From: an uncultured Anaerolineales bacterium
Lineage (GTDB): Bacteria > Chloroflexota > Anaerolineae > Anaerolineales > UBA11858
Reading direction: 5' to 3'
NCBI GenBank assembly: GCA_964618295.1
Contig: CAZTWV010000001.1
Coordinates: forward strand, 92,863 to 156,862
Length of the DNA stretch: 64,000 nt
Made by a program: the position numbers and the translations under genes. This document shows, piece by piece, positions 30,671 to 62,629 of the stretch; the first letter of the stretch is position 1; every line of letters begins with the position of its first letter. Under the pieces are notes generated by a model, which did not search any database, was not told the DNA's origin, and saw only the letters and a program-made list of their open reading frames with translations.

Positions 30671-30686
30671 TGTGACAAACATCACA
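30671..30686. promoter_or_regulatory. CRP/FNR-type palindrome TGTGA-N6-TCACA
   Basis: The exact sequence TGTGACAAACATCACA lies about 27 nt upstream of the putative -35. Confidence 0.4.
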
Positions 30687-30701
30687 ATATAAGTTAAAAA
30701 T

Positions 30702-30716
30702 TTGTCAGACAATTGA
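30702..30716. promoter_or_regulatory. Candidate operator, TTGTCAGACAA palindrome (15-mer TTGTCAGACAATTGA identical to 56849-56863)
   Basis: An 11-bp TTGTC-N-GACAA palindrome of GntR-type 'GT-N-AC' architecture. It abuts and overlaps the -35 hexamer. Confidence 0.55.
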
Positions 30717-30741
30717 CAGTCAAAGGCTTGTTTGTTAAACT
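30713..30741 (+). promoter_or_regulatory. Putative sigma70-type promoter of the amidohydrolase gene (TTGACA-17 nt-TAAACT)
   Basis: A perfect -35 at 30713-30718, a 17-nt spacer, and TAAACT at 30736-30741. The ATG is at 30783. Confidence 0.45.
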
Positions 30742-30745
30742 TATA

Positions 30746-30756
30746 TTGTCTGACAA
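30746..30756. promoter_or_regulatory. Candidate operator, TTGTCTGACAA (reverse complement of site 30702-30712)
   Basis: It lies immediately downstream of the putative -10. The extended match TATATTGTC-N-GACAA is shared with 56792-56806. Confidence 0.55.
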
Positions 30757-30782
30757 ATTTCTACACAGGACCAAAGGCGAGG

Positions 30783-32174
30783 ATGATTATGCCCACACTT
30801 CTTGTCAAGAACGCCCAGATCTTAGTAACAATGGATGAACACCGCCGTGAGATTGAAAACGGTGGTCTTTTTGTTAAAGACGGCTTTATTGAACAGGTCG
30901 GGCCCACGGATCAACTTCCGAAAAAGGCCGATAGAGTCCTGGACCTGGCTGGCCATCTGGTACTGCCGGGACTGATCAACACCCACCATCATTTTTATCA
31001 AACACTGACCCGGGTTGTTCCAGAGGCGCAGGACGCCAATCTTTTTCATTGGTTGAAAACCCTCTATACCATCTGGGCTCGGATGCAGCCAGAGGATATT
31101 CAGATTTCAACCAAAACAGCTCTGGCTGAACTGGCTCTTTCGGGCTGTACAACAGCATCCGATCACCTGTATTTATTTCCGAATGGCTCACGTTTGGATC
31201 ATGAAATTGAAGCTGCCCTTGAGATAGGACTTCGTTTGCATGCCTCCCGCGGTTCAATGAGCCTGGGAGAAAGTGATGGAGGTTTACCTCCTGACAGCGT
31301 GGTAGAAGATGAAGATTATATTTTAGAGGATTCCCGACGCTTGATTGAGACCTATCATGACAGCAGCCCGGGTTCGATGACCCAAATTGTGCTTGCTCCA
31401 TGTTCGCCGTTCAGTGTCACGGGTGATTTGATGCGTGAAAGCGCAGTTTTAGCCCGTGAATATGGGGTGCAGCTGCATACCCACCTGGCCGAGACGGAAG
31501 ATGAGATCGATTTTTGTATTGAAATGTTCGGGAAACGCCCTGTTGCCTACATGGAAGAAGTGGATTGGATCGGTCCGGATGTCTGGTTCGCCCATTCAGT
31601 CTACGTTAATGACCAGGAAATTAAAGTCTATGCTGATCACCATTGTGGTGTGGCCCACTGCCCGAGCTCAAATATGCGTCTGGCTTCCGGTGCAGCTCCG
31701 ATTCTGGATCTGCGGGCTGCCGGCGTTGATGTCGGGTTGGGCGTGGATGGATCCGCCAGCAATGATGGATCCCATATGATTGAAGAGGCCCGTCAGGCGA
31801 TGCTTCTATCCCGCCTTCGGGCTGGAATGATGGGGGCTTCTCGCTCTGATGGAGGGGCTCAGCCGATTATGTCAGCCCGGCAGGTGCTGGAACTGGCCAC
31901 AATTGGCGGTGCTGCAGTCCTCGGTCGAGAGGATATCGGCTCCCTGGCAGCTGGAAAGGCAGCTGATTTTACGGCGATTAATTTAAACCGGATTGATTAT
32001 GCAGGTGCACTGCACGATCCAGTGGCTGCCGTACCGTTTTGTGCTCCGGTGAAAGTGGATTACACCGTAGTCGGAGGGAAAATGATTGTTAAGGATGGAC
32101 AGCTGATGACCGAGGATCTACCGGTCTTGATTGAGAACCACAACAAGGCTGCTCACAGGTTATTAAACGAATAA
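30783..32174 (+). CDS. COG0402-type amidohydrolase, 8-oxoguanine/guanine/isoxanthopterin-deaminase-like
   Basis: 'PGLINTHHHFYQTLTR', 'HTHLAETEDE', 'AHSVY', 'HCPSSNMRL', and 'GVDGSASND'. The start is set at the first ATG (MIMPTLLVKNA) rather than the TTG at 30732. Confidence 0.8.
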   Translation: MIMPTLLVKNAQILVTMDEHRREIENGGLFVKDGFIEQVGPTDQLPKKADRVLDLAGHLVLPGLINTHHHFYQTLTRVVPEAQDANLFHWLKTLYTIWARMQPEDIQISTKTALAELALSGCTTASDHLYLFPNGSRLDHEIEAALEIGLRLHASRGSMSLGESDGGLPPDSVVEDEDYILEDSRRLIETYHDSSPGSMTQIVLAPCSPFSVTGDLMRESAVLAREYGVQLHTHLAETEDEIDFCIEMFGKRPVAYMEEVDWIGPDVWFAHSVYVNDQEIKVYADHHCGVAHCPSSNMRLASGAAPILDLRAAGVDVGLGVDGSASNDGSHMIEEARQAMLLSRLRAGMMGASRSDGGAQPIMSARQVLELATIGGAAVLGREDIGSLAAGKAADFTAINLNRIDYAGALHDPVAAVPFCAPVKVDYTVVGGKMIVKDGQLMTEDLPVLIENHNKAAHRLLNE

Positions 32175-32197
32175 CAATTGTTATTCGTTTATTTTTT
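32167..32197 (+). terminator. Perfect 22-bp palindrome plus T-run (weak intrinsic terminator/attenuator or protein-binding site)
   Basis: ACGAATAACAATTGTTATTCGT (32167-32188) overlaps the TAA stop of the upstream gene and is followed by TTATTTTTT. Confidence 0.45.
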
Positions 32198-32209: not shown

Positions 32210-34012
32210 ATGACTTTGGAAAAAATCAGCACCGAAACAAGAAATCTCGTAGATGTGGCCATGGGCCGCACAACTGCGGATCTGCTGTTTCAGAACGGGA
32301 TCTGGGTTTGTGTTCAAACCGGTGAGTTCATTCCCGGGACGGATATCGCTGTCTCTGGCGATCGGATTGCTTTTGTGGGTCCTGATGCCAGTCATACGAT
32401 TGGAGATGAGACCGAAGTGATCGACGCCCGGGGAAAGTATCTGGTCCCTGGTTTGCTGGATGCCCATATGCATATTGAATCCGGGATGGTAACGATTACG
32501 GAGTTTGTCCGGGCAGTGGCCCCCCGAGGGACGACCGGGATGTTTGTTGATCCCCATGAGATAGCCAATGTATTCGGGTTGGAAGGTGTTCGGCTGATGG
32601 CAGACGAAGCGGAAAACCAGCCTGTTCATGTCTGGGTTCAGGTTCCCTCCTGTGTGCCGTCTGCACCGGGATTAGAAACACCGGGATCGGCAATCGGTCC
32701 CGAGGAAGTTGAAGAAGCAATGACCTGGGACCGAATTATCGGCCTGGGAGAAATGATGAATTTTCCGGGTGTGTTTACTAGTGATCAAAAGATGCACGAT
32801 GAAATGGCAGCAACCCGGGCTGCCGGGAAAGTGATCGGCGGGCATTATGCTTCTCCGGATCTGGGACTGCCGTTTCATGGATATGCCGCCGGCGGCCCGG
32901 AAGATGACCATGAAGGAACCCGGAAAGAAGATGCTGCCGCCCGCGTCCGGCAGGGGATGAAAGCCATGCTACGGTATGGTTCAGGTTGGCTCGATGTAGA
33001 AGCCCAGATTAAAGCCATTACGGAAGATGGACTCGATTCCCGTCATTTTCTGCTCTGCACGGATGATTCCCATTCTGAGACCCTGGTCAATGACGGTCAT
33101 ATGGACCGTGTTCTGCGTCATACCATCGGGTTGGGCGTGGATCCGATGCTGGCGATTCAGATGGCAACCATTAATACTGCAGAGCATTTCGGAGTTGCCC
33201 GAGATCTGGGCCAGATTGCCCCCGGCCGTTTTGCCGATGTGCTGATCGTTGAAGATTTGCAGGATTTCCGGCCGGAGCTGGTGCTGGCACAAGGTCAGGT
33301 GCTGGCCCGGGATATGAAATGGGAGATTGATCTTCCAGCTTATACCTACCCGGATTGGGCAGCTGACTCCATTCACCTCCAGCGCCCGTTGACAGCGGAG
33401 GATTTCCGCCTTCCTGTCTCATCAGAGCTCCAGGATGAGATATTAATGGCCCATGTGATTGGAGTGATTGAAGGGCAGGCACCTACCAAACATCTGCAGA
33501 TCCAGGTTGAGGCAGAAAATGGGGAAGTTCGAATCGATTTGGATCGCGATCTGGCGAAGATCGCACTTGTTGAACGCCACAAGGGGACCGGCGGAGTAGA
33601 GGTAGGCCTTGTTCAAGGATTTGGCTTTGAAGGAAAATGCGCGACAGGGACCACGGTAGCCCATGACTCCCACCATATGATTGTGGTTGGGACAGATGAG
33701 GAGCAGATGGCTCTGGCTGCGAATCATCTGGCAGAGATTCACGGCGGTCAGGTTGTGATCCAGGATGGAAAAGTGATTGGAGAAGTGGCCCTGCCAATTG
33801 CAGGCTTGATGTCCAATCAACGGGCAGATCTGGTAGCAGAAGAAGCGGCAACCGTCTTGGAGGGATTCAGGAATTGCGGCTGCACGATCGTAAATCCCAA
33901 TATGCAGTTGAGCTTGCTGGCCCTGGCAGTGATTCCGGCCCTCCGGATTTCTGATCTGGGGCTGGTGGATGTCGAGAAGTTTGAATTTGTACCCGTGCTG
34001 GAAAAAGAATAA
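32210..34012 (+). CDS. ade: Adenine deaminase (COG1001 family)
   Basis: 'PGLLDAHMHIESGM', ~600 aa, and the C-terminal domain motif 'AHDSHHMIVVGTD'. Confidence 0.85.
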   Translation: MTLEKISTETRNLVDVAMGRTTADLLFQNGIWVCVQTGEFIPGTDIAVSGDRIAFVGPDASHTIGDETEVIDARGKYLVPGLLDAHMHIESGMVTITEFVRAVAPRGTTGMFVDPHEIANVFGLEGVRLMADEAENQPVHVWVQVPSCVPSAPGLETPGSAIGPEEVEEAMTWDRIIGLGEMMNFPGVFTSDQKMHDEMAATRAAGKVIGGHYASPDLGLPFHGYAAGGPEDDHEGTRKEDAAARVRQGMKAMLRYGSGWLDVEAQIKAITEDGLDSRHFLLCTDDSHSETLVNDGHMDRVLRHTIGLGVDPMLAIQMATINTAEHFGVARDLGQIAPGRFADVLIVEDLQDFRPELVLAQGQVLARDMKWEIDLPAYTYPDWAADSIHLQRPLTAEDFRLPVSSELQDEILMAHVIGVIEGQAPTKHLQIQVEAENGEVRIDLDRDLAKIALVERHKGTGGVEVGLVQGFGFEGKCATGTTVAHDSHHMIVVGTDEEQMALAANHLAEIHGGQVVIQDGKVIGEVALPIAGLMSNQRADLVAEEAATVLEGFRNCGCTIVNPNMQLSLLALAVIPALRISDLGLVDVEKFEFVPVLEKE

Positions 34013-34016: not shown

Positions 34017-34742
34017 ATGAGTGAAAACGATGTATCAAAAACAATCCATGAGCAGCTCAGCACCTTAATTGCTGAGACAGATTCTGGAGAAAGGCTTCCA
34101 TCGGAACCCAAGCTGGCGAAAAACCTGGGTGTTTCCCGGGCGACCCTGCGGGAAGCGATGCGAACTTTTGAAACCCGAGGCTTGCTGCAGAGGAAACAAG
34201 GTGTAGGAACGTTTGTAATCCATCCCACCCATGTCTTCGAGACCGGGCTGGAAAATTTGATGAGTCTGGAGAACTTGGCGGATCAAATTGGGCTGGATGT
34301 AGATATGGGCGAGCTGGTCGTCAAAGAAATTACTGCGGATGGGGATCTTGCAAAGACTCTCACCGTTCCGGAAGGTGAGCTCATACTCCAGGTAGCCCGC
34401 ACGATCCTGGCAGAAAACAGACCGATCGCGTATTTGGTCGATAATCTGCCGACGGATGTGCTGTCGGCTGATGAAGTTAATCAAAAATTCACCGGATCAG
34501 TCCTGGATTTGTTGATCACCCATGACGATATTCCCCTGACCAGTTCACGCTGTGATATCACAGCCATGGGAGCACCGCCTGAGATAGCCAGTGCGCTGGA
34601 TATCCAGCGGCGGGATCCGCTGCTGATATTTTCATCCAAACTGTACAACAATCAAGGAAGGATTATCGATTATTCTTTCAGCTATTTTATCCCCGGACAT
34701 TTTCGTTTTCATATTGTCCGGAGAATAGTCAGTCAAATTTAA
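34017..34742 (+). CDS. GntR-family transcriptional regulator, HutC/UTRA subfamily
   Basis: N-terminal wHTH 'LPSEPKLAKNLGVSRATLREAMRTFETRGLLQRKQGVGTFV' plus a ~150-aa UTRA-like effector domain. The start is at ATG 34017, just after the ade stop. Confidence 0.88.
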   Translation: MSENDVSKTIHEQLSTLIAETDSGERLPSEPKLAKNLGVSRATLREAMRTFETRGLLQRKQGVGTFVIHPTHVFETGLENLMSLENLADQIGLDVDMGELVVKEITADGDLAKTLTVPEGELILQVARTILAENRPIAYLVDNLPTDVLSADEVNQKFTGSVLDLLITHDDIPLTSSRCDITAMGAPPEIASALDIQRRDPLLIFSSKLYNNQGRIIDYSFSYFIPGHFRFHIVRRIVSQI

Positions 34743-34832: not shown

Positions 34833-35786
34833 ATGAGAAGTTTTGCTGGACGGAACATTATATCTTTGAAAAATTTTGAACGACGGGAATTCGAGCGTGT
34901 TTTGGAAGTGGCTGCTGAACTGGCACCCATCGCCCACAACCGTAAGAATGTTGATCTGCTGAAGGAAAAGACCATGGTGACGGCTTTCTATCAGCCTTCA
35001 ACCCGAACCCGACTCGCCCACGAAGCTGCCATGCTGCGGTTGGGCGGAAAAGTGACCGGATTCTCCGATGCAAAAATGACCCGGGCCGGTGACTTTTATA
35101 TGGAAACCATCAAGGATACCTTCAAGATGCTTGAGCACTACGGGGACGTGATTGTTATGCGTCACTTCCAGAAAGGCGCTCCAGCCGAAGCAGCCAAATG
35201 GACCAGCGTTCCGATCATTAACGGCGGTGATGGATGGGGTGAGCACCCGACCCAGATCCTGACCGACCTCTACACCATCTGGCAGGAAAAAGGGATCCTT
35301 GACGGTCTGCGCTGGGTGGCGGTTGGTGATATGCGGATGCGCACCATGCATTCCCTGGGGCACGCCCTGACCCAGTTTGACTGCCCGATCACCTTTATTT
35401 CTCCTGAAGATATGTCCCTTCCGGATGAGTACCGCGAAGACTTCAAACAGAACAGCTTGAACTTCACCGAGGGTGATGATGTCCGCGAAGTGATTGCTGA
35501 CGCAGACGTGATCCTGGTTGAACCGGTTGTCCAGCCTGATTACACCAAATCCCGCGACGAGCGTGATGGTGATGTCGGAATGACCCCGCCTGAATTCAAG
35601 ATAACCCGCGAGCTGCTGGAAACCAAAGCGAAATCCGATGCGGTTCTGCTGCACTCCCTGCCCCGCATGGACGAGATTCCTCCCGATGTCGATCAGACCC
35701 GGTGGGCTCGCTACTGGCAGGAAGGTTTCAACGGTGTTGTGATGCGGATGGCACTGTTGGCCCTGGTGCTCGGCGCCAAAGAGTAA
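34833..35786 (+). CDS. Aspartate-carbamoyltransferase-fold transcarbamylase with a non-canonical second-substrate site
   Basis: By eye it aligns along its full length with E. coli-type PyrB: 'QPSTRTR', 'NGGDGWGEHPTQ', 'GDMRMRTMHS', and 'LHSLPRMDEIPPDVD'. The Asp-binding 'TRVQKER' is replaced by 'EPVVQPDY'. Confidence 0.8.
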   Translation: MRSFAGRNIISLKNFERREFERVLEVAAELAPIAHNRKNVDLLKEKTMVTAFYQPSTRTRLAHEAAMLRLGGKVTGFSDAKMTRAGDFYMETIKDTFKMLEHYGDVIVMRHFQKGAPAEAAKWTSVPIINGGDGWGEHPTQILTDLYTIWQEKGILDGLRWVAVGDMRMRTMHSLGHALTQFDCPITFISPEDMSLPDEYREDFKQNSLNFTEGDDVREVIADADVILVEPVVQPDYTKSRDERDGDVGMTPPEFKITRELLETKAKSDAVLLHSLPRMDEIPPDVDQTRWARYWQEGFNGVVMRMALLALVLGAKE

Positions 35787-35807
35787 GGTCGGTAGAAGAA
35801 GAAAACA

Positions 35808-35858
35808 CCAGTATGGAGCGGTTTCAAAGCACAATTTTTAGAGGCAGCTCCATACTGG
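35808..35858. repeat. 12-bp perfect inverted repeat CCAGTATGGAGC / GCTCCATACTGG (27-nt loop) in a 271-nt intergenic region
   Basis: Read directly: arms at 35808-35819 and 35847-35858. No U-run follows. Confidence 0.5.
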
Positions 35859-36057
35859 AGTAAGACAACTTAATGCTCAGTTTTATTCGTAGGCAAGAAA
35901 TTCAAATCAACCACAAAACCCCGGAGAGCTGAATTCGAAGCACGGAAGCCGATCATAAACCAATCCAGCACCGGTTAATAATTGAACAATAATACCAATC
36001 CTGCAAAACGCTGAGCTGTATTCCAAATAGATCTTATCTAATCAGAAGGAGATAAAT

Positions 36058-37038
36058 ATGATTTCCGATTTACGCGGTCGAGATTTAATCAGCGACCTTG
36101 ATTTTTCCAAAGAAGAAGTAGAAACCATTCTGGAAGTTGCCTGGGATCTTAAGAAAAAGCGGGCTCTTGGCGAACCCCATGCTCTGCTGCGGGATAAAAC
36201 CCTCTCCATGCTTTTCTTCTTCTCCAGCACCCGGACCCGGGCTTCTTTTGAATCCGGCATGGCCCAGCTGGGCGGACATGCAGCTTTTATGGAAAGCCGC
36301 ACCACCCAGGTGTCCCACGGTGATACAGAGAAAGAACTCGGTGAAATTCTGGGACGGTATTTTGACGGAATTGCCATCCGACACGTTACATGGGGTGTTG
36401 GCAACCAGTATCTGAACAATGTTGCTTCTGCCTCCCGGGTTCCCGTGCTGAACATGCAGTGCGAAGTTTACCATCCCCACCAGTGCCTGGCTGACATTAT
36501 GACCATCCAGGAAAAGAAAGGGAAAGACCTGCGCGGGAAGAAGATTGTGGTCTCCTGGGCTTATGCTTCCTCTTATCTCAAACCGATCTCTGTGCCGCAG
36601 TCCCTGATCCTCCAGATGCCCCGCTTTGGTCTGGATGTCACCCTGTCCCATCCCCCGGAATTCAAATTAATGCCGGAGATCATGGAACAGGCTCAAGAAC
36701 AGGCTGATAAATACGGCGGTAAATTTGAGGTTGTCCATGATATGGAAGAAGGCTTCAAAGATGCTGACATTGTCTACGCCAAATCATGGGGTCCGCTGCT
36801 GACCACCCAGGATCCGGATGAGGGCAAGAAGATTCAGGATCAGTACAAAGATTGGATTACTGATTCCAGGAAGATGGCTCTGGCAGATAAGGATGCAATT
36901 TACATGCACCCGCTTCCCGCAGACAGGGATGTCGAAGTCACCAGTGAAGTGATGGATGGACCGCAGTCCGTGGTCTTCGATCAGGCCGAAAACCGTATGC
37001 ATGCTCAGAAAGCCGTCATGGCTCTGACCATGCGCTAG
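36058..37038 (+). CDS. Ornithine-carbamoyltransferase-fold transcarbamylase with a non-canonical second-substrate site
   Basis: 'SSTRTRASFE', 'HPHQCLADIMTI', and the C-terminal 'VVFDQAENRMHAQKAVMA' are OTCase-like. The ornithine loop DxxxSMG reads 'AKSWGPL', and HCLP reads 'HPLP'. Confidence 0.8.
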   Translation: MISDLRGRDLISDLDFSKEEVETILEVAWDLKKKRALGEPHALLRDKTLSMLFFFSSTRTRASFESGMAQLGGHAAFMESRTTQVSHGDTEKELGEILGRYFDGIAIRHVTWGVGNQYLNNVASASRVPVLNMQCEVYHPHQCLADIMTIQEKKGKDLRGKKIVVSWAYASSYLKPISVPQSLILQMPRFGLDVTLSHPPEFKLMPEIMEQAQEQADKYGGKFEVVHDMEEGFKDADIVYAKSWGPLLTTQDPDEGKKIQDQYKDWITDSRKMALADKDAIYMHPLPADRDVEVTSEVMDGPQSVVFDQAENRMHAQKAVMALTMR

Positions 37039-37047: not shown

Positions 37048-38004
37048 ATGACAAAAGAAAAGAAAGTTGCTGTAGTTGCCATTGGCGGTAATTCGCTGAT
37101 CAAGTCCAAGCAGCACCAGACCGTGGAAGATCAGTACCAGGCGGCTAAAGAAACTGCAGCCCACCTGGTGGATATGATCGAAGCGGGCTGGGATATCGCG
37201 GTGGGGCACGGGAACGGCCCCCAGGTTGGATTCATTCTGCGCCGGTCGGAAATTGCCGCCAAAGTGGAAGGAATGCACGAAGTACCGCTGGATGTCTGCG
37301 GTGCGGACAGCCAGGGTGCGATTGGTTATGCTCTGCAGCAGAACCTGCACAACGAGCTTTCTGACCGGGGTATTGACAAATCAGTTGCGACCGTGATCAC
37401 CCAGGTCCGGGTGGATGCTGATGATCCTGCGTTCCAGGAACCAGCTAAACCGATTGGGACGTTCATGGAAGAAGACGAAGCCATGCGCCGCAAAGAAGAG
37501 ATGGGATGGAATGTGGTTGAAGATGCCGGACGCGGCTGGCGCCGGGTTGTGGCTTCCCCCCTTCCGGTCGAAATCATGGAGCTGGAAGCGGTTAAAGCCC
37601 TGATTGCATCCGGAACGATCACCATCACCGTCGGCGGGGGAGGAATCCCCGTCATAAAAACAGATGCTGGCTTGAAGGGAACAGCAGCCGTGATTGATAA
37701 AGACTTCGCTTCCTCCTTCCTGGCAACTGAAATGGATGCTGATCTGCTGCTGATCTCCACGGCTGTGGAAAAAGTGGCCCTGAATTTCGGGAAACCGGAT
37801 CAAAAAGATCTCGATGTGATGACGGTAGCGGAAGCAAAACAGTACCTCGATGAGGGCACTCATTTTGCAAAAGGCTCCATGGAACCGAAAATCCGGGCTA
37901 TTGTCCGCTTCCTGGAGAACGGTGGAAAAGAAGCGATAGTGACCGACCCAAAGAATATTGGGCGAGCTTTGAAAGGTGAAACGGGAACAAAAATAATTCC
38001 CTGA
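37048..38004 (+). CDS. arcC: Carbamate kinase
   Basis: 'VVAIGGNSL', 'HGNGPQVG', and 'GGGGIPV'; 318 aa. It starts 9 nt after the preceding transcarbamylase gene. Confidence 0.9.
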   Translation: MTKEKKVAVVAIGGNSLIKSKQHQTVEDQYQAAKETAAHLVDMIEAGWDIAVGHGNGPQVGFILRRSEIAAKVEGMHEVPLDVCGADSQGAIGYALQQNLHNELSDRGIDKSVATVITQVRVDADDPAFQEPAKPIGTFMEEDEAMRRKEEMGWNVVEDAGRGWRRVVASPLPVEIMELEAVKALIASGTITITVGGGGIPVIKTDAGLKGTAAVIDKDFASSFLATEMDADLLLISTAVEKVALNFGKPDQKDLDVMTVAEAKQYLDEGTHFAKGSMEPKIRAIVRFLENGGKEAIVTDPKNIGRALKGETGTKIIP

Positions 38005-39494: not shown

Positions 39495-39507
39495 ACCTCA
39501 CACAATT

Positions 39508-41152: not shown

Positions 41153-41153
41153 T

Positions 41154-55885: not shown

Positions 55886-56827
55886 ATGACCGAGAAACCA
55901 ACCTTTACAATCATAGCTCCAATTTTCAATGAGGTGGAGAATCTCCCGATTTTGTACACCCGAATTTGCGAGGTGATGGATCAAACCGGTCAGCCCTGGG
56001 AAATGGTGATGGTTAATGATGGATCCAGCGATGGATCCACAGAGAAGTTGGACGAGCTGCAAGCGGCGGATGAGCGAATCCGGGTTGTTCATTTTGCCCG
56101 GAATTTTGGACACCAGATTGCGGTCACAGCTGGTTTGGATTACAGCAGGGGGGATGCTGTCGTGATAATTGACGCAGATCTCCAGGACCCGCCGGAAGTG
56201 ATTCTAGATTTAATCTCCAAGTGGAAAGAAGGTTATGAAGTGGTTTACGCTGTACGGGCTAAACGAGAGGGGGAGACCTGGTTTAAACTCTTCACAGCTG
56301 CAGCTTTTTACAGGCTTATTCAGCGGATTACCGATGTTGATATTCCAATGGATACCGGGGATTTCAGGCTTCTGGATCGGACAGTTGTCGACGTCATGAA
56401 CCAGATGCGGGAGCGGCACCGCTTTTTACGCGGGATGTCGGTCTGGGTTGGATTTAAGCAAATTGGGGTTGAATATGAAAGAGCCGAGCGTTTTGCCGGA
56501 GAGACCAAGTACCCTCTCCGTAAAATGCTGCGTTTTGCCCTTGATGCAATTACAGGATTTTCGTATTTTCCCCTTCAGCTTTCAATGTACCTGGGATTTA
56601 TTGCTGCCGGGTTGAGCATTCTCTCAATTCCGGTGGTGATCGCTCTTCGATTGGCAGGATCCCAGGCTTTTTTCGGCCAGGCATCTACCCTGATTGCTGT
56701 TCTGTTTCTGGGTGGTGTTCAGTTAATTTCCCTTGGGATTGTCGGGGAATACATCGGGCGTTTGTATGATGAAGCGAAAGGCCGACCTCTCTATATTGTC
56801 AGACAACACCCTCCCAAAAAACAGTAA
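55886..56827 (+). CDS. Family-2 glycosyltransferase, polyprenyl-phosphate glycosyltransferase-like (DPM1/ArnC/GtrB type)
   Basis: 'IIAPIFNE', 'VNDGSSDGS', '[10 protein letters not shown]', and two C-terminal TM helices. Confidence 0.88.
56796..56806. promoter_or_regulatory. Candidate operator TTGTCAGACAA (inside the 3' end of the GT2 gene)
   Basis: The exact 11-mer. The extended form TATATTGTCAGACAA matches 30742-30756 except for the central base. Confidence 0.5.
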
Positions 56828-56848
56828 TTTGTAGTATTATAGAGTTAG

Positions 56849-56863
56849 TTGTCAGACAATTGA
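56849..56863. promoter_or_regulatory. Candidate operator TTGTCAGACAATTGA (identical 15-mer to 30702-30716)
   Basis: It lies 47 nt upstream of the ATG at 56910. The downstream elements AGGCTTG and AACTTA recur at similar spacing at both loci. Confidence 0.55.
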
Positions 56864-56909: not shown

Positions 56910-58373
56910 ATGATTGACCTCTCCATGGATAAAAAGCAGTTAGAACGGACTGTGCAGCGGGCCCGGGAACGCAATATTATCATCCCGACTTTTGCACAAA
57001 TGAAGAACCCTGAACTGATTCCAGATTCAGTCAAAAACGAGTTGAAGGATATCGGTCTCTGGGATATCACCTCCCGCAACCTGTTCCGGATCACCTGGAA
57101 AAACGAACCGGTTGCCAAAGGCGGTGGTTATGGTGGTGTAAATTACATTGAGCTTCCCCCGAGCCTGACCGGTGTCAAGGCCCGGATTATTGCCCTGGTT
57201 GGAAAGTGGTTCCCCACTGGTGCTCATAAAGTTGGAGCGACTTTTGGCTGTCTGGTTCCCCCGCTGGTTACCGGCCAGTTTGACCCGACCTACCACCAGG
57301 CTGTTTGGCCCTCCACCGGAAATTACTGCCGGGGCGGTGCCTATGATGCTTCCCTCCTGGCCTGTGAATCGATTGCCATCCTCCCTGAAGGAATGAGCCG
57401 GGAACGTTTTGAATGGTTGGAAAAAGTAGCTGGTGAGGTAATTGCGACTCCTGGCTCCGAGAGCAATGTGAAAGAAATTTATGACAAAGTCAAAGAGCTG
57501 AAAGCAGAACGTGATAACGTTTTTGTCTTCAATCAGTTTGATGAATTCGGCAACTACCTCTGGCACTATGAAGTTACCGGTCATGCCATGGAAGAGGTTT
57601 TGCAGGAAGTGATGGGCCCGCGCGATGAATACCGCGGCCTGACCCTGACCACCGGTTCCGCCGGGACTCTGGGTGTGGGTGATTACATGAAGCAGCTTTT
57701 CCCCGGCAGCATCAACGTAGCCGGAGAAGCTCTGCAGTGTCCCACCTTGCTGGAAAACGGCTTTGGCGCTCACCGGATCGAGGGTATCGGCGACAAACAT
57801 GTTCCCTGGATTCACAATGTCAAAAATACCGATATGATTATGGCGATTGACGATAACACCGTGGTCAACCTGGCCCGGCTCTTCAATGAACCTGCCGGAC
57901 ATAAATACCTGACCGATGTGGGTGTTCCCGAGGATCTGGTTGGAAAACTGGACCTGCTGGGATTCTCCAGCATTGCCAACACCGTGATGGCAATCAAGAT
58001 GGCTAAGTACTACGAGATGGATGAGAATGACGTGATCCTCACTGTTTGGACTGACTCCATGGAACTGTATGAGAGCCGCCTGCATGAAATGCATGAGGAA
58101 ATTGGTCAGTACACCGAAATGGATGCTGCCCAGACTCACGCCATGTACATCTGCGGTCTGACCCCGAATTACCTCCAGGATCTGACCTATCAGGATCAGC
58201 GCCGGGTCCACAACCTGAAATACTTCACCTGGGTCGAGCAGCAGGGCAAGACCTTTGAACAAATCCAGGACCAGTGGTATGAACGGGATTACTGGACCAA
58301 TTTCCAGAAGCAAATTCCGGATATTGATGAATTAATCGTGGAATTCAATGAGCGGGTAGGTTTGCTCAAATAA
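56910..58373 (+). CDS. Large (487-aa) PALP-fold, TrpB-like PLP-dependent enzyme of unknown specificity
   Basis: 'GKWFPTGAHKVGATFG' resembles the TrpB 'HTGAHK' PLP-lysine motif, and 'STGNYCRGGA' is also present. The start is chosen at the first ATG (MIDLSMDKK) behind a GGA-rich RBS rather than the TTG at 56865. Confidence 0.65.
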   Translation: MIDLSMDKKQLERTVQRARERNIIIPTFAQMKNPELIPDSVKNELKDIGLWDITSRNLFRITWKNEPVAKGGGYGGVNYIELPPSLTGVKARIIALVGKWFPTGAHKVGATFGCLVPPLVTGQFDPTYHQAVWPSTGNYCRGGAYDASLLACESIAILPEGMSRERFEWLEKVAGEVIATPGSESNVKEIYDKVKELKAERDNVFVFNQFDEFGNYLWHYEVTGHAMEEVLQEVMGPRDEYRGLTLTTGSAGTLGVGDYMKQLFPGSINVAGEALQCPTLLENGFGAHRIEGIGDKHVPWIHNVKNTDMIMAIDDNTVVNLARLFNEPAGHKYLTDVGVPEDLVGKLDLLGFSSIANTVMAIKMAKYYEMDENDVILTVWTDSMELYESRLHEMHEEIGQYTEMDAAQTHAMYICGLTPNYLQDLTYQDQRRVHNLKYFTWVEQQGKTFEQIQDQWYERDYWTNFQKQIPDIDELIVEFNERVGLLK

Positions 58374-58491: not shown

Positions 58492-58830
58492 TTAGGAAAA
58501 AAACCGCCAGGGCCCCTTGTAGGGATTTCGTATCAGGGGAGGGGAAATTGCATAGCGCGAATTTTTTCTAGCCTGGATAATCACCCGCCCCCGTTGAGAA
58601 ATCAAAAACCCTTCTTCTTCCTGCAGTACATAATCGTCCAGGTCATTTTCCTGGGTGATCCATAATGAACCTTCCTGACAGTAAATGAGCTTCCAGCGGT
58701 GATCACCTGTCAAGCGTTGAATTTCACCTTGCAACAAGTAAAAGCTCGAATCGCTTCTGATCTTTTGTGCTGTTTGGTACAGGATCCGGGGTTCGTTCAG
58801 CCAGGTTTCTTGTTCAATTGCAATTGCCAT
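58492..58830 (-). CDS. Small beta-rich protein, DUF2917-like (tentative)
   Basis: 113 aa from MAIAIEQ. 'LIYCQEGSLWITQENDLDDYVLQEEEGFLI' resembles the 'G.vWvT..gd..D.vL..G' pattern I associate with DUF2917. It is divergent from the MocR gene. Confidence 0.45.
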   Translation of the reverse strand: MAIAIEQETWLNEPRILYQTAQKIRSDSSFYLLQGEIQRLTGDHRWKLIYCQEGSLWITQENDLDDYVLQEEEGFLISQRGRVIIQARKNSRYAISPPLIRNPYKGPWRFFS

Positions 58831-58984
58831 ATTTAACCTCTCTTGAGTTAAAACTTGGAACTGTATTTTAAAGATAACAAAATTCCAGTTATAATAACAG
58901 ATACAGTTCATATCAATTGATACCATAACAGTTGGGGCTTATCCCGAAGCGTGATTTTCAGTTTATTGATCAGCGTGGTGAAAA

Positions 58985-60397
58985 ATGTACAAATATGAAC
59001 AGGTTGTCAAAGATATTATTCAGCAAATAGAAAATGGAACCTACAGCCCCGGTTCAAGACTCCCGTCCCTGCGGGATTTGAGTGAACAGCTGGAGGTCAG
59101 CATCTCTACGGTTACCCAGGCCTATTATTTGTTGGAAGCCCGCGGTTGGGTAAAAGTTCTGGACCGATCAGGTTTTTATGTTCGCAATCAGCTCCCCAAT
59201 TTACTGCCGGAACCTGATAAATCATCGCCTCTTGCCGACCCCAGCCGGGTCAGTATGCGGACGATTATCAACCGGATAGTACATACGGATACTCAGTATC
59301 CAGATCTCGTGCAGCTGGGAGCAGCCCATCCAAATCCAGAGCTTTCGGCAACTACCGAGATAAACTGCTCTATGCGCAGGATGGAGCGGGAATTGACCAA
59401 TCGAGTGGGGATGTATGACTATGTTCCCGGTCTGCTGCCGCTCAGGATTCAGATTGCCAGGCGGTCCCTGATTTCAGGCTGCCAAATTTCACCGGATGAG
59501 GTTATTATCACCACCGGCTGTACAGAAGCGATCAATTTATCCCTGCGGGCAGTCTGTCAGCCAGGGGATACGGTGGCTATTGAATCTCCAATGGTGTTTG
59601 ATACCCTTTTAATGTTAGATATCCTGGGTTTAAAGGCAGTAGAAATTCCGACCCATCCCCGGTCTGGGATGGACCTGGATGCCCTTGAGGCAGCAATTAA
59701 AAGAAACCCGATTTCAGCAGTAATAGTAATTTCGAATTTTAACAATCCCCTGGGGAGTTCAATACCGGAAGAGTCCAAAAGGAAATTGGCAGAGTTGGTC
59801 AATCGGGAGCAAATTCCTTTGATTGAAAATGAGATCTTTGGTGAGCTGTACTTTGGAGATCAGCGTCCAAAGACTGTGAAGGCTTTTGATCGGGATGGAT
59901 GGGTGATCCTGTGTTCCTCCTTTTCAAAAAGCCTGGCTCCAGGATACCGGGTCGGCTGGGTGCTCCCCGGTCGATTTCAGGAGATGGTGGAATGGCTGAA
60001 GTACACAACCAGCTTAGCTTCGCCCACCCTGGCTGAATATGGGATAGCCGATTTTATGGACAGCGGTAGATACCAGCCTTATTTACGGAAAGTTCGCAGG
60101 GAATATGCCCGGCGCATGTCAGCTTTATCCCAATCTGTGCGGAGGTTTTTTCCAGCGGAGACCCGCTTGACTCGACCTAAAGGTGGGTTTGTGCTCTGGG
60201 TTGAACTTCCGGAATCAGTGGATGCCCTGGAGGTCTATTACCGGGCACTTGAAGCAGGTACAGCAATCACCCCTGGCCACTTATTTTCAGCTTCAGATCA
60301 ATATCAGCACTTTATCCGATTAAATGCTGCCAACTGGTCCCCTGATGTAGATGGGCACATCAAACAATTAGGTCAATTCATTTCAGGCGACATATAG
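58985..60397 (+). CDS. MocR/PdxR-type regulator (GntR wHTH + class-I aminotransferase-like domain)
   Basis: 'LPSLRDLSEQLEVSISTVTQAYYLLEARGWV' plus an aminotransferase fold with 'SFSKSLAPGYRVGW' (PLP lysine). Confidence 0.9.
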   Translation: MYKYEQVVKDIIQQIENGTYSPGSRLPSLRDLSEQLEVSISTVTQAYYLLEARGWVKVLDRSGFYVRNQLPNLLPEPDKSSPLADPSRVSMRTIINRIVHTDTQYPDLVQLGAAHPNPELSATTEINCSMRRMERELTNRVGMYDYVPGLLPLRIQIARRSLISGCQISPDEVIITTGCTEAINLSLRAVCQPGDTVAIESPMVFDTLLMLDILGLKAVEIPTHPRSGMDLDALEAAIKRNPISAVIVISNFNNPLGSSIPEESKRKLAELVNREQIPLIENEIFGELYFGDQRPKTVKAFDRDGWVILCSSFSKSLAPGYRVGWVLPGRFQEMVEWLKYTTSLASPTLAEYGIADFMDSGRYQPYLRKVRREYARRMSALSQSVRRFFPAETRLTRPKGGFVLWVELPESVDALEVYYRALEAGTAITPGHLFSASDQYQHFIRLNAANWSPDVDGHIKQLGQFISGDI

Positions 60398-60499
60398 ACC
60401 TGTAATAGAAGAATAGAAGTTAAATTTAATCCCTCTTGTCGACTATTTTTGTATAATGGTTACAAGGGGATCAGAACTTTATCTGAATGGGGGTAAATA

Positions 60500-61045
60500 A
60501 TGTCCCAGTATTACTTATCTGCAGACTCTTTAATCCTGGTCGCGATCCTTCCAAGTCCAAAAGATCTGAATTATGCCCGTGTGCTGGGATGGTATCGGAT
60601 TCCGGCCAGAACTGCACCCCGGGTCTTGAATGTAGATTTTCTGGCTTTTTATCAGCCGGCTTCTTTCCTGGACCACCGCTGGAGGATAGATTATCTGGCA
60701 CAGGTCCGGGGCCATGAGCTGACTACCCGGCTGGAGCTGATCCAGGATCAACCTGATCATCCCCGGGCGGACCATGAATATTACAAAATTCAGCTGGGTC
60801 CGCTGATGAAGCTGCAGCATGCAATCCGGGCCGGGTCCTGGAAAAGATTCACCTTTTTATATACCACGGGAGAGTACTTTCAACAGGCCAGGACGCTGAC
60901 GGATCTGACGGTCTCACCCTCCGAGCGCCGACAGCTCTGGAAGGCTTTCCGGGAACGGGGTGGGTCGGATGGTGGGTATCTTCCAGATCCTGCCCAAGAA
61001 GATGTACCGGATGAGGTGATTGCAGCTTTGCTCGGGATCATTTGA
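60500..61045 (+). CDS. Hypothetical protein (181 aa), no recognised domain
   Basis: An intact ORF with a plausible RBS (GGGGGTAAATAATG). I recognise no motifs. Confidence 0.55.
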   Translation: MSQYYLSADSLILVAILPSPKDLNYARVLGWYRIPARTAPRVLNVDFLAFYQPASFLDHRWRIDYLAQVRGHELTTRLELIQDQPDHPRADHEYYKIQLGPLMKLQHAIRAGSWKRFTFLYTTGEYFQQARTLTDLTVSPSERRQLWKAFRERGGSDGGYLPDPAQEDVPDEVIAALLGII

Positions 61046-61207
61046 TCAAAGATTGATGTAATTCAGGGATTGGGAACCAGGTTAGGAGATCTGATAAAAT
61101 TTCCCTGCGGTTGGAGATCAAACGCGGGTCTGGTGTATAATTTTCCCAGAAAATACCAGGTAAAAACTTGCCAGGATTTTTCTGTCCCGGCAGGAAAAGG
61201 ATGTTGT

Positions 61208-62629
61208 ATGAAAACAAAAATTATCAAAAATGGAACACTGGTTACTGCCTCGGATACCTTCCAGGCGGACATTAGAATTGAGGAAGAAAAGATTGCCCTG
61301 ATCGGGAACGATCTGGATCAAACAGGGGTAGAAGTAATTGACGCGGAAGGGAAATTGATTTTTCCCGGGGGGATAGATCCCCATGTTCACCTGGATTTAC
61401 CGATGTTCAATACAGTTTCCTCGGACGACCATTACACAGGACATAAGGCGGCTGCTTTTGGAGGAACAACGACCGTAATGGACTTTGTGGAGGATCGGGA
61501 TTCGGATTTGCTGAAGAATCTGGATACCTGGCATGAAATGGCAGATCCCAAGGCTGCCATTGATTTCGGTTTTCATTTGAATATCACGAACTTCAATTCG
61601 GAAGTTGGGGCCCAGATTCCAGATTTGGTTTCTGCGGGGGTGACCACATTGAAAGTTTTTACTGCCTACAACAACCGGCTGCGCTTGCAGGACGGTGAAA
61701 TTTTCCAGGTACTGCGGATTGCAGCTGAGCATGGGATGCTGACCATGCTGCATGCTGAAAATGGTGATGTGATCGATATTCTGGTCTCCGAAGCGCTCAA
61801 GGCCGGTCATACTGCTCCTGAATGGCATGCCCATACGCGGCCTGCATGGGGAGCGGTTGAATCTGTACTCCGGGCTTCTGCACTGGCTGCCCAGGCGGAT
61901 GCTCCGCTGTATATTGTTCATATGAACACAGCCGGGGGAGTGGATCAGCTCCGATACGCCAGGGAACGGGGTGTGAAAGTGATGGGTGAGACCTGCCCGC
62001 AGTATTTGTTCTTCACCGTGGATGACTTGAAACGTAACGATGGAGCAAAGTGGATCTGTTCCCCGCCGATGCGAAGCCCCGCGGATAACGAACGGATCTG
62101 GGAGCGGTTAATGGATAATACTCTCCAGACTGTTGGAACGGATCACTGTCCCTTTTTCTATAATGGTGATCAGGAGATCGTTTATGAAGGTGAAGACGTA
62201 AAAATTCCGGGCAAAGAGCTGGGGGCGAATGATTTCACGCTGATTCCTAACGGTCTCCCGGGAGTGGGGGATCGGATGCCGATTCTCTGGACAGAAGGTG
62301 TCGGAAAAGGCCGGATCACACCAAATCAATTTGTAGCTCAAACCAGCACCAACGCAGCGAAAATCTTCGGGATTTACCCTCAAAAAGGCTGCCTGGCCCC
62401 TGGTTCGGATGCCGACCTGGTAATCTGGGACCCGGAAAAGAAGCTGAAGTATGGTGTGGAAGTTGCCCAGCACCGCACGGATTACAATCTGTATGAGGGT
62501 TGGGAGCTGCAGGGATTTCCCGAGAGGGTTTTTCTGCGCGGCAGCTGTATTGTTGATCAGGGTGAGTGGCGCGGGAACCGGGGCCAGGGAAAATTCTTAA
62601 AACGAAAACCCTTTGCGGAAGTGATCTAA
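61208..62629 (+). CDS. Dihydropyrimidinase / D-hydantoinase-family cyclic amidohydrolase
   Basis: 'PGGIDPHVHLD', 'TLKVFTAY' (carboxylated-Lys context), 'HAENGD', 'HMNT', and 'GTDHCPF'. The start is set at MKTKIIKNG. Confidence 0.88.
   Translation: MKTKIIKNGTLVTASDTFQADIRIEEEKIALIGNDLDQTGVEVIDAEGKLIFPGGIDPHVHLDLPMFNTVSSDDHYTGHKAAAFGGTTTVMDFVEDRDSDLLKNLDTWHEMADPKAAIDFGFHLNITNFNSEVGAQIPDLVSAGVTTLKVFTAYNNRLRLQDGEIFQVLRIAAEHGMLTMLHAENGDVIDILVSEALKAGHTAPEWHAHTRPAWGAVESVLRASALAAQADAPLYIVHMNTAGGVDQLRYARERGVKVMGETCPQYLFFTVDDLKRNDGAKWICSPPMRSPADNERIWERLMDNTLQTVGTDHCPFFYNGDQEIVYEGEDVKIPGKELGANDFTLIPNGLPGVGDRMPILWTEGVGKGRITPNQFVAQTSTNAAKIFGIYPQKGCLAPGSDADLVIWDPEKKLKYGVEVAQHRTDYNLYEGWELQGFPERVFLRGSCIVDQGEWRGNRGQGKFLKRKPFAEVI

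Follow-up and report, generated by a model that had tools for sequence, protein, structure and literature searches.

Which route does a bacterium follow that devotes some 32 kb to purine handling and lacks the genes of the uricase/allantoinase pathway? This question is raised by a gene cluster at positions 30,671–62,629 of a 64,000-nucleotide stretch of DNA (here the window) from an uncultured Anaerolineales bacterium of the phylum Chloroflexota (assembly GCA_964618295.1, contig CAZTWV010000001.1, positions 92,863 to 156,862 of the forward strand). Gene assignments in the window were based on a listing of open reading frames (ORFs) and on Pfam and NCBIfam family scans with curated cut-offs; model scores are given below as bits versus cut-off. 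All genes listed in an initial annotation of this cluster proved to lie on the plus strand, with coordinates that match those assigned to them exactly or differ by a few codons, and no uricase, HIU hydrolase, allantoicase or urease was found in the 64 kb or in the next gene downstream, in line with its claim that the textbook route is not used. The cluster is a previously undescribed variant of the reductive uric-acid pathway, with two new component classes. Our preferred reading, to which we give a probability of roughly 55%, is that it encodes the feeder steps and the lower, ATP-yielding module of a variant reductive (2,8-dioxopurine) uricolytic pathway of Chloroflexota and Actinomycetota type.

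The reductive pathway (also named after 2,8-dioxopurine, "yanthine") was established in 2025 with gene sets from E. coli and Clostridium. XdhD/DOPDH converts urate to 2,8-dioxopurine, which is reduced by YgfK or UacX; SsnA opens the ring to give 5-ureidomethylhydantoin and HyuA forms 2,3-diureidopropionate from it; YgeW phosphorolyses one ureido group to carbamoyl phosphate, from which YqeA makes ATP, while YgeY hydrolyses the other ureido group and YgeX converts diaminopropionate to pyruvate (PMC12507026; bioRxiv 10.1101/2025.04.24.650524). ATP is formed from 2,3-diureidopropanoate by YgeW plus YqeA (bioRxiv 10.1101/2025.04.24.650524), and the YgeW product is given as albizziin in one of the two papers and as 3-amino-2-ureidopropanoate in the other (PMC12507026 versus bioRxiv 10.1101/2025.04.24.650524). 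These studies bear out the link between the E. coli ygeW region and anaerobic urate degradation that the initial annotation had mentioned. A Chloroflexota variant with an F420 reductase was noted by Li et al., only as a neighbourhood pattern, in a survey that took every PF00185 protein for a YgeW and every PF00291 protein for a YgeX (PMC12507026). Because this way of counting lumped them with the known enzymes, a second transcarbamylase and pyridoxal phosphate (PLP) enzymes other than YgeX have not been described before.

Two atypical transcarbamylases accompany a carbamate kinase

The first transcarbamylase of the cluster (Table 1), described initially as an ATCase-fold enzyme, passes the TIGR00670 model of aspartate transcarbamylase (ATCase; 249 versus 237), but it lacks the ligands of the aspartate side chain. 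The carbamoyl-phosphate motifs STRT and HPTQ and the equivalent of R167 are kept, whereas HSLP stands where ATCase has HPLP, the 80s loop (RAGDFY) has lost the K84 equivalent, and the RxQ motif (R229 and Q231) is gone, replaced by PVV/VQP. In ATCase, R229 and Q231 are ligands of the aspartate beta-carboxylate and K84 is carried by the 80s loop. The protein therefore does not show the combination of K84, R229, Q231 and HPLP that marks a PyrB, and its own motifs are invariant across 29 orthologues. True ATCases carry KKGE, YGRTVHS, RIQKERF and HPLP, from which the diverse 'RAGD' proteins encountered in a search of 1.8 billion representatives differ. By these motifs the window protein is a pseudo-ATCase and not an ATCase. 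The pseudo-ATCase class was described in 2013 beside a ygeW homologue, xanthine dehydrogenase (XDH) genes and hyuA in Nocardioides (PMC4016543), and the window protein agrees with the description of Barba et al. 2013 in keeping STRT and HPTQ, in its altered motifs 3 and 4 and in its non-pyrimidine context. Relative to the classes of that study it was placed by gene context, which is of the Nocardioides type; placement on the numbered subgroups was dropped, as the motif rows of Table 1 and Figure 5 of that paper could not be reconciled.

The second transcarbamylase (below, the OTC-like protein) scored below all equivalog cut-offs, both those for N-acetylornithine and ornithine transcarbamylase (AOTCase, 270 versus 288; OTCase, 264 versus 306) and those of two YgeW models (207 versus 453 and 198 versus 500). 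It is 35% identical to E. coli YgeW, with which it has the motifs SWAYxxSYxKPxSVPQ, KSWGP and TQxxHGDT in common, and it is about 70 residues shorter and lacks three YgeW insertions. HPLP and KSWG stand in place of HCLP and SMG, so that the HCLP and DxxxSMG signatures of OTCase and AOTCase are missing. On this evidence the protein is classed as a probable short member of the YgeW clade, and the database labels of ornithine or N-acetylornithine carbamoyltransferase that it carries are mis-annotations. Among the matches listed, close homologues are named as Anaerolineales or Chloroflexota metagenome-assembled genomes (MAGs). Several others among these matches (87–91% identity) are labelled 'Candidatus Heimdallarchaeaceae archaeon' in NCBI; these records are probably contaminated or mis-binned MAGs. 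The carbamate kinase that follows is 50% identical to YqeA and passes the TIGR00746 model.

The core of the cluster is conserved across phyla

When an alignment of the pseudo-ATCase clade was scanned against one genome per species, 29 orthologues with 61–79% identity were retrieved. Their loci are labelled as Anaerolineales and other Chloroflexota, Acidimicrobiia, a Nocardioides MAG, a Streptosporangiaceae MAG, Eisenbacteria, Limnocylindria, Phycisphaerae and, in one case, a Verrucomicrobiia MAG. The window and E. coli proteins were mapped onto these loci within the fetched flanks, where most loci without a given gene are contigs that end early. The OTC-like gene was found in 22 of the 29 loci, arcC in 20, the gene for a threonine synthase (ThrC)-like PLP enzyme in 14, the gene for a 487-aa PLP enzyme of the PALP fold in 13, and YgeX in none. 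The core order is kept in 22 of the 29 loci, in several phyla, and most of the others are contigs ending early. The cluster is thus a real, conserved catabolic unit and more than a chance association.

The most compact version was found in a Pelolinea locus (L015), in which genes for the COG0402 amidohydrolase, GntR, pseudo-ATCase, OTC-like protein, carbamate kinase, ThrC-like enzyme, a GT2 glycosyltransferase, the 487-aa PALP enzyme, a 181-aa protein and the hydantoinase follow each other with no gene interposed. Three further loci (L007, L016 and L018) have a first ABC (ATP-binding cassette) importer system added after arcC, and ade2, one of two adenine deaminase genes, is the first gene of a block seen here in none of the fetched relatives. 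From these gene orders we conclude that the block at 43.3–54.6 kb (ade2, XDH and ABC system 2) is an insertion into an older core. Of the genes whose co-occurrence across related genomes was initially suggested as a check, the ATCase-like, OTC-like, arcC and 487-aa PLP genes recur together, and ade2 and XDH belong to the inserted block. The genes for the MocR regulator and the DUF2917 protein are a second insertion, common to none of the fetched relatives: they are not found at the orthologous place, and in L015 the PLP gene is directly followed by the gene for the 181-aa protein. They are probably not part of the pathway and look like a small independent regulator–target pair inserted into the cluster.

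Recurrent ORFs of the related loci encode an LLM (luciferase-like) reductase, a UacY-like Amidohydro_3 protein, a second PALP type and F420 genes; for the recurrent 699-aa, 849-aa and 523-aa ORFs the Pfam and NCBIfam scans gave no match. A 570-aa Amidohydro_3 protein is encoded directly upstream of the pseudo-ATCase gene in two Acidimicrobiia (L022, 2970–4667, and L024, 8147–9865, both on the minus strand) and belongs to the same Pfam family as the D-aminoacylase-like UacY of C. difficile; these two genomes may have both hydrolytic and phosphorolytic options.

In other genomes the core is joined to genes of the reductive pathway

Among the E. coli pathway proteins, homologues in the window were found for YgeW, YqeA and HyuA only; the HyuA-family and carbamate kinase components of the reductive cluster are both present. 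The kinship to the E. coli ygeW-ygeX-ygeY-hyuA-yqeA/ssnA-xdhD region that had been proposed for the cluster is borne out by the identities to YgeW (35%), YqeA (50%) and HyuA (39%) and by the fusion of the core with marker genes of the reductive pathway elsewhere. SsnA and a reductase are linked to the core in L028, L029, L030, L034, L021 and L086. In L028 (Nocardioides) and L029 the order is SsnA, F420-type LLM reductase, pseudo-ATCase and OTC-like protein; in L034 it is pseudo-ATCase, OTC-like protein, carbamate kinase, XDH, SsnA and LLM; L021 carries YgfK and SsnA, and XdhD-like genes were found in L020, L022 and L028.

The fullest arrangement is that of L030 and of the cultured Anaerolineae member Aggregatilinea lenta (L086), where COG0402, HyuA, pseudo-ATCase, OTC-like protein, carbamate kinase, ThrC-like enzyme, GT2, PALP enzyme, a protein resembling the 181-aa protein and SsnA are followed by F420 genes. 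The SsnA of L030 is a true one (NF005540, 532 versus 444). The A. lenta proteins are 64% (pseudo-ATCase), 66% (OTC-like), 61% (carbamate kinase), 51% (ThrC-like), 63% (GT2) and 40% (PALP) identical to those of the window, and the gene for the 181-aa homologue is followed in A. lenta by SsnA, fno, cofE, cofD, cofC, the LLM reductase and XDH. Between SsnA and the LLM reductase (15118–16125 of L086) lies a full F420 set (fno, cofE, a nitroreductase-like gene, cofD and cofC; region 11381–16125 of L086). Because this set is embedded in the uricolytic cluster, cofactor synthesis in A. lenta is co-located with the sole step that needs F420.

Two PLP enzymes and a hydantoinase complete the core

The initial assignment of the two PLP enzymes as ThrC-like and TrpB-like stands for the PALP fold of both and for the ThrC-like character of the first, while the second is CysK/CBS-like and not TrpB-like. 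The ThrC-like enzyme lies between the models, failing PRK08197 and passing TIGR00260 only marginally (Table 1), and it is the best relative of YgeX in the window (24% identity, E = 4e-12; diaminopropionate ammonia-lyase model, 66 versus 276). In 12 of 12 orthologues STGNTSAS is changed to STGNAGAA and NPYRxEGQKT to NPFTAEGKKT. The Thr and Arg of these two motifs bind the substrate phosphate in the threonine synthase of T. thermophilus, and since both are replaced in all 12 orthologues the enzyme is not a threonine synthase. It is a candidate for the terminal deamination step, and its gene directly follows arcC in L015, L019, L020, L030, L033 and L086. The 487-aa PALP enzyme has N- and C-terminal extensions, and its best solved relatives are cysteine synthases (E = 7e-16); orthologues with 40–74% identity were found in 13 loci and in L086. 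In loci without the ThrC-like gene another PALP protein, of 466 aa, adjoins the 487-aa enzyme, so that paired PALP enzymes are the rule.

In every Chloroflexota version (L007, L013, L015, L018, L030, L033 and L086) the GT2 gene separates the two PLP genes, and its 62–77% identity is a higher conservation than that of its neighbours. The gene is missing from the Actinomycetota versions; we regard it as a conserved passenger without an evident catabolic role. The 181-aa protein gave no match in Pfam or NCBIfam. Its homologues in L015 (16818–17429), L030 (17143–17703), L033 (16875–17540) and L086 (9312–9998) are 25–52% identical and keep the motifs WYRxP, HPRA, YYKxQ and YTT, and in the Chloroflexota versions the gene always stands right after that for the 487-aa enzyme. 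A single-sequence AlphaFold model of the protein was unusable (pLDDT 39). The claim that almost every gene of the cluster is linked to purines is not supported for GT2, DUF2917, MocR and the 181-aa gene.

The hydantoinase passes the TIGR02033 model (HyuA family, IPR011778), scores below the allantoinase cut-off (254 versus 358), and is 39% identical to E. coli HyuA and 64% identical to the L015 orthologue at the same place. It is predicted to open a hydantoin or dihydropyrimidine ring, giving 2,3-diureidopropionate.

Deaminases, an XDH-family enzyme and two ABC importers are predicted to feed the pathway

The COG0402 enzyme scores well above the cut-off of the 8-oxoguanine deaminase model (Table 1) and far below that of the SsnA model (NF005540/TIGR03314, 156 versus 444), with 27% identity to GuaD and 26% to SsnA. 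Being a deaminase-family protein, and coexisting with a true SsnA in relatives (L030, L086 and L028), it is not SsnA; it is predicted to act as a feeder that converts 8-oxoguanine to urate and possibly also takes guanine-type substrates. The two adenine deaminases, ade1 and ade2, both pass TIGR01178 and are 35% identical to each other, and the adjacency of ade1 to the COG0402 gene is kept in Anaerolineales loci.

The best models of the three subunits of the XDH-family molybdenum hydroxylase were XdhB, XdhC and PucD, each scoring under its cut-off (PucD, 556 versus 784), and no XDH equivalog model was passed. With XdhA the molybdenum (Mo) subunit shares 30% identity and with XdhD 27%; among solved structures, 4-hydroxybenzoyl-CoA reductase comes closest. 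In an alignment with a bovine reference fragment, counterparts of Glu802, Arg880 and Glu1261 fall in GGKE, MRGFG and GIGE. E. coli XdhD has Gln at both of the first two catalytic positions, where the window subunit has Glu and Arg; by this pair and its 27% identity the window subunit does not have the features of an XdhD/DOPDH-type enzyme, although the Mo subunits adjoining SsnA in L029 and L034 carry the Glu/Arg signature too. A classing as canonical or XdhD-like by active-site residues was abandoned as non-discriminating for this reason. For the same reason the sequence does not decide between hypoxanthine and xanthine oxidation, urate reduction or both; the best reading is that the enzyme would oxidise hypoxanthine and xanthine.

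The two BMP-type ABC importers are only 22–51% identical to each other in their components. Their gene orders, initially called mirrored, are in fact permuted (binding protein, ATPase, permease, permease versus permease, permease, binding protein, ATPase). In L007, L016 and L018, arcC and the ThrC-like gene are likewise separated by system 1. Ranked by E-value, the best solved matches of both binding proteins are AtzT (6PI5) and the Brucella protein 3S99 (E = 1e-36 and 3e-36, respectively, for the protein of system 1). The binding protein of system 2 differs from both in being a 662-aa tandem fusion of two such BMP domains (approximately aa 45–352 and aa 361–658), each half of which matches AtzT and 3S99 separately. 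AtzT binds guanine with a dissociation constant of 0.11 uM and adenine with one of 2.5 uM, and adenine was modelled in the site of 3S99 (PMC6834077). The best reading of these matches is that both importers would take up purine bases, though the ligand could be urate or a pathway intermediate.

A shared palindrome precedes both ends of the core

Exact copies of the palindrome TTGTC(A/T)GACAA were found upstream of the COG0402 gene (30702 and 30746), where they flank a promoter-like site, TTGACA-17-TAAACT, and upstream of the gene for the 487-aa PALP enzyme (56796 and 56849); a degenerate copy precedes the pseudo-ATCase gene. Seven hits were counted, a number reached by none of 100 shuffles. 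In nine Anaerolineales loci (L007–L009, L011, L013–L016 and L018) the COG0402 orthologue is likewise preceded by an exact copy. The palindrome has the form expected for an operator of HutC-type GntR regulators and is a candidate operator of the GntR/UTRA regulator of the cluster, whose GntR and UTRA domains were detected by Pfam on an identical gene in L001. The probable targets of this regulator through TTGTC(A/T)GACAA include the first operon and the gene for the 487-aa enzyme. As a common conserved candidate operator stands before the first operon and the PALP gene, both ends of the core probably belong to one regulon.

Proposed pathway and alternative explanations

Taken together, the gene content suggests that purine bases would be taken up by the BMP-type importers, that adenine would be deaminated to hypoxanthine by the adenine deaminases, that the 8-oxoguanine-deaminase-family enzyme would yield urate or xanthine, and that hypoxanthine and xanthine would be oxidised by the XDH-family enzyme. 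The conversion of urate to 2,8-dioxopurine, the reduction of the ring and its opening by SsnA would be encoded elsewhere in the genome or supplied differently. Judging from homology and context, the hydantoinase would then convert 5-ureidomethylhydantoin or 5-ureidodihydrouracil to 2,3-diureidopropionate, one ureido group of which would be phosphorolysed by the YgeW-like enzyme. Active-site logic suggests two further steps: the pseudo-ATCase may phosphorolyse the N-alpha-ureido group that YgeY hydrolyses in E. coli, as its ligand of the alpha-carboxylate is kept and the invariant Asp gained in the 80s loop could face an amino or ureido side chain, and one or both PLP enzymes may take the place of YgeX and release pyruvate and ammonia from 2,3-diaminopropionate or from a mono-ureido derivative. 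Carbamate kinase could turn both carbamoyl phosphates into ATP, giving up to two ATP per purine as against one. The ATP-yielding carbamoyl-phosphate logic put forward initially is therefore kept as the best reading, while the doubling through two phosphorolyses is a tentative proposal, for which we see somewhat less than even odds.

Several observations speak against this interpretation. The cluster, initially called a ring-cleavage supercluster, is not self-contained in this sense: SsnA, YgfK, UacX, an LLM reductase, an XdhD-type enzyme, YgeY and YgeX were all not found in the window, and the pathway as encoded there is incomplete for want of them. No dearomatising reductase was detected, be it by tblastn and blastp with YgfK and the LLM proteins of A. 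lenta and L034 or by Pfam among the window ORFs; YgeY gave no match in the window, and the absence of an M20 peptidase and of YgfK from the 64 kb, already noted initially, was upheld. The same gap exists within 10 kb in the closest Anaerolineales (L007, L009, L013, L015, L016 and L018), and just outside the window no relevant gene occurs, the flanks of the cluster being unrelated (gyrB and a Ser/Thr kinase gene upstream; folP and then htpG downstream). The hydantoinase is only 32% identical to that of the A. lenta cluster. In five relatives the pseudo-ATCase gene has a YgeY homologue as its neighbour, in two of them along with the OTC-like gene, which means that the pseudo-ATCase is not a plain substitute for YgeY. 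The 2025 papers are at odds over which ureido group YgeW removes, so that the respective roles of the two transcarbamylases cannot be told apart on this basis. The hydantoinase product is the (R)- (D-) isomer, while ATCase acts on L-aspartate. Finally, the substrates of all cluster proteins are predictions from sequence.

The absence of SsnA and a reductase from the window and its closest relatives is compatible with two other explanations, both of which we consider unlikely. One of them is a generic fermentation of cyclic ureides, in which the hydantoinase would act on non-purine hydantoins or dihydropyrimidines, the transcarbamylases would phosphorolyse N-carbamoyl alpha- or beta-amino acids, carbamate kinase would make ATP, the PLP enzymes would deaminate and the purine genes would be separate neighbours. 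The hydantoinase does pass a dihydropyrimidinase equivalog, and catabolic ATCase-like and beta-alanine transcarbamylases have been predicted as possibilities (PMC4581275), but neither a dihydropyrimidine dehydrogenase nor a pyrimidine transporter is encoded, and the pseudo-ATCase has lost its aspartate ligands. One operator type stands before both the purine-deaminase operon and the PALP gene, every Anaerolineales locus has deaminase genes at the head of its cluster, and in other phyla this core is found fused to genes for SsnA, LLM and XDH. The other, of much the same low probability, is a self-contained and redox-neutral hydrolytic route through the purine ring that would need neither SsnA nor a reductase. 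Urate might be converted to 5-ureidobarbiturate and this to 5-aminobarbiturate and carbamoyl phosphate, after which the ring would open, a second phosphorolysis would follow and the PLP enzymes would take an aminomalonate-level product; alternatively, xanthine would give 4-ureidoimidazole-5-carboxylate, which would then be phosphorolysed. The Anaerolineales version conserves no more than a pair each of ring-active amidohydrolases (COG0402 and hydantoinase), transcarbamylases and PLP enzymes, with no reductase in reach, and by our own calculation urate + 5 H2O = aminomalonate + 2 CO2 + 3 NH3 is redox-neutral. Against this route, we know of no precedent for its reactions; the COG0402 enzyme is well above the deaminase cut-off and coexists with a true SsnA in relatives; and the transcarbamylase and PLP core is highly conserved (61–79%) between SsnA-bearing and SsnA-free genomes, an identity that argues for one common substrate of the core. 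It is similarly improbable that the Anaerolineales version is complete in the sense that the COG0402 enzyme and the hydantoinase dismantle the ring without SsnA or reduction, the transcarbamylase pair saves both urea-level carbons as carbamoyl phosphate for two ATP per purine and the PALP pair takes a C3 amino acid other than 2,3-diaminopropionate; if true, purine-ring degradation would have a third and redox-neutral route in addition to the oxidative and the reductive one.

Still less probable is an oxidative ureide route, with the pseudo-ATCase as ureidoglycine carbamoyltransferase (UGTCase; allantoate + Pi to ureidoglycine + carbamoyl phosphate) and the OTC-like protein as oxamate transcarbamylase. 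Allantoate likewise has two ureido groups, and a pseudo-ATCase with this activity has been reported from Rubrobacter xylanophilus, beside a carbamate kinase (PMC4016543). The window, however, has no uricase, HIU hydrolase, OHCU decarboxylase, allantoinase or ureidoglycolate enzyme, its hydantoinase is below the allantoinase cut-off, and the context of its pseudo-ATCase is of the Nocardioides type (ygeW homologue, XDH, hyuA) and not of the Rubrobacter type (uricase, allantoinase). Anaerolineales are, moreover, typically anaerobes, and uricase needs O2. We give hardly any credence to a chance neighbourhood of biosynthetic pyrB, argF, thrC and cysK beside purine-salvage genes. Two permissive models (TIGR00670 for ATCase and TIGR00260 for ThrC) and the public names of the OTC-like protein would fit it, but the residues with which ATCase, OTCase and threonine synthase bind their substrates are absent from all orthologues, the gene order, with its catabolic carbamate kinase in mid-cluster, recurs in different phyla, and no pyrI, pyrC, arg or thr genes lie nearby.

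Layout of the cluster and its surroundings

The features of the cluster are collected in Table 1. Identical genes are present on four metagenome contigs. An Rfam scan of the whole window gave no match, and promoter and terminator scans of the window gave counts no higher than those in shuffled controls.

Table 1. Features of the purine cluster in the 64-kb window, with positions counted from its first nucleotide and scores in bits versus model cut-off
Feature	Position	Strand	Basis or remark
Candidate operator/promoter region, two palindrome copies	30699-30759		upstream of COG0402 gene
COG0402 amidohydrolase, 8-oxoguanine deaminase family	30783-32174	+	NF006055, 679 versus 532
Adenine deaminase 1 (ade1)	32210-34012	+	TIGR01178, 500 versus 472.5
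GntR/UTRA (HutC-type) regulator	34017-34742	+	PhnF and HutC family models
Pseudo-ATCase	34833-35786	+	OTCace_N and OTCace domains; active-site motifs
Short YgeW-like transcarbamylase (OTC-like)	36058-37038	+	OTCace_N and OTCace domains
Carbamate kinase (arcC)	37048-38004	+	NF009007, 407 versus 266; TIGR00746, 381 versus 358
BMP-type ABC importer 1	38202-43261	+	Pfam Bmp; binding protein 38202-39494, ATPase 39602-41152, permeases 41154-42287 and 42290-43261
Adenine deaminase 2 (ade2)	43265-45019	+	TIGR01178, 489 versus 472.5
Three-subunit XDH-family Mo hydroxylase	45047-48649	+	best models XdhB, XdhC, PucD; FAD subunit 45047-45916, 2Fe-2S subunit 45913-46401, Mo subunit 46394-48649
BMP-type ABC importer 2	48729-54606	+	Pfam Bmp; permeases 48729-49874 and 49871-50803, binding protein 50885-52873, ATPase 53056-54606
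ThrC-like PLP (PALP) enzyme	54611-55849	+	PRK08197, 264 versus 303; TIGR00260, 171 versus 167 (borderline)
GT2 polyprenol-phosphate-type glycosyltransferase	55886-56827	+	family scan
Second pair of the TTGTCAGACAA palindrome	56793-56862		upstream of 487-aa PLP gene
487-aa CysK/CBS-like PALP enzyme	56910-58373	+	Pfam PALP, 36.9 versus 35
DUF2917 protein	58492-58926	-	Pfam scan
MocR regulator, divergent from DUF2917	58985-60397	+	family scan
181-aa protein, no family	60500-61045	+	no match in Pfam or NCBIfam
D-hydantoinase/dihydropyrimidinase (HyuA family)	61208-62629	+	TIGR02033, 521 versus 393

Within the cluster, a perfect AT-rich 12-bp hairpin (32164–32191) spans the stop codon of the COG0402 gene ahead of ade1, and a GC-rich 13-bp hairpin with a T-run (39508–39537) lies directly 3' of the first binding-protein gene. 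The transcarbamylase genes are separated by a non-coding gap of 272 bp (35787–36057), in which Rfam gave no match; the gap measures 50 bp in L007 and is occupied in L016 by a 699-aa ORF without a family.

The first 27 kb of the window contain housekeeping and signalling genes. A dense signalling neighbourhood (10574–20002 and 29502–30617) encodes four Ser/Thr kinases, one of them fused to a PQQ-type beta-propeller, together with PP2C, FHA and DnaJ-VWA proteins and two response regulators. On the minus strand (24260–26242) lies the gene of a 660-aa amidohydrolase of TRZ/ATZ type (MTA/SAH-deaminase-like) with a C-terminal extension of about 220 aa without assignment, followed by a 339-aa ORF without a family (26412–27431). 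The 660-aa protein was considered as the missing SsnA and ruled out, as its best model is that of the TRZ/ATZ family and it scores 225 versus 444 with the SsnA model.

Significance and comparison with known systems

If the reading of the cluster as part of a variant reductive pathway is correct, environmental Chloroflexota and Actinomycetota would use a different lower half of that pathway, with a pseudo-ATCase of an orphan class and two PLP enzymes unrelated to YgeX. The reading provides the first concrete substrate hypothesis for the pseudo-ATCase clade, which has been without a function since 2013. Should both ureido groups be phosphorolysed, the ATP yield per purine would double, which bears on the energy economy of purine fermenters living in anoxic sediments and in digesters and on the design of uricolytic probiotics, for which flux versus energy balance is an open question (PMC12507026). 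The analysis also flags a systematic mis-annotation of such proteins as aspartate or ornithine carbamoyltransferase, threonine synthase and cysteine synthase. Direct tests of the hypothesis are possible in cultured carriers, namely A. lenta and, according to Barba et al. 2013 (PMC4016543), Nocardioides sp. JS614.

With the E. coli, C. sporogenes and C. difficile cluster (xdhD-ygfM, ygfK/UacX, ssnA, hyuA, ygeW, yqeA, ygeY, ygeX) the window has in common a HyuA-family hydantoinase, a YgeW-related transcarbamylase and a YqeA-like kinase, and thereby the predicted passage from a ureido group through carbamoyl phosphate to ATP, with a putative canonical XDH and purine deaminases as predicted feeders. 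It differs in its additional pseudo-ATCase, in the ThrC-like and CysK-like PLP enzymes that stand in place of YgeX, and in uptake by BMP-type ABC importers and not by NCS2 permeases. Closer still is the F420 variant of Chloroflexota and Actinomycetota (L086, L030, L028, L029 and L034), which likewise combines pseudo-ATCase, OTC-like protein, carbamate kinase, the ThrC-like or 466-aa PALP enzyme and the 487-aa PALP enzyme with COG0402 at the head and, in the Chloroflexota versions, the GT2 and 181-aa genes. Compared with this variant, the window is without SsnA, the LLM reductase and the F420 genes, has the hydantoinase where SsnA sits, and has gained GntR, ade1, two ABC importers, ade2 and the three-subunit XDH.

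The pseudo-ATCases of Barba et al. 2013 (PMC4016543) resemble the window protein in that STRT and HPTQ are kept, HPLP is changed and RxQ is lost, and the context in Nocardioides sp. JS614 (ygeW homologue, XDH genes, hyuA) matches that of L028 and of the window. The Rubrobacter UGTCase, which was assayed with ureidoglycine and allantoate, sits with uricase and allantoinase, whereas the clade of the window protein sits with SsnA- or hydantoinase-type genes; compared by context, the surroundings of the Rxyl_2847 type (uricase, allantoinase and carbamate kinase) were not found in the window. The arginine and agmatine deiminase pathways follow the same principle, in that phosphorolysis of a ureido compound by a transcarbamylase and a carbamate kinase together provide ATP by substrate-level phosphorylation. 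In contrast to these pathways, the window has no deiminase and its transcarbamylases lack the ornithine and putrescine motifs (SMG, HCLP), and it pairs two different transcarbamylases with a single carbamate kinase.

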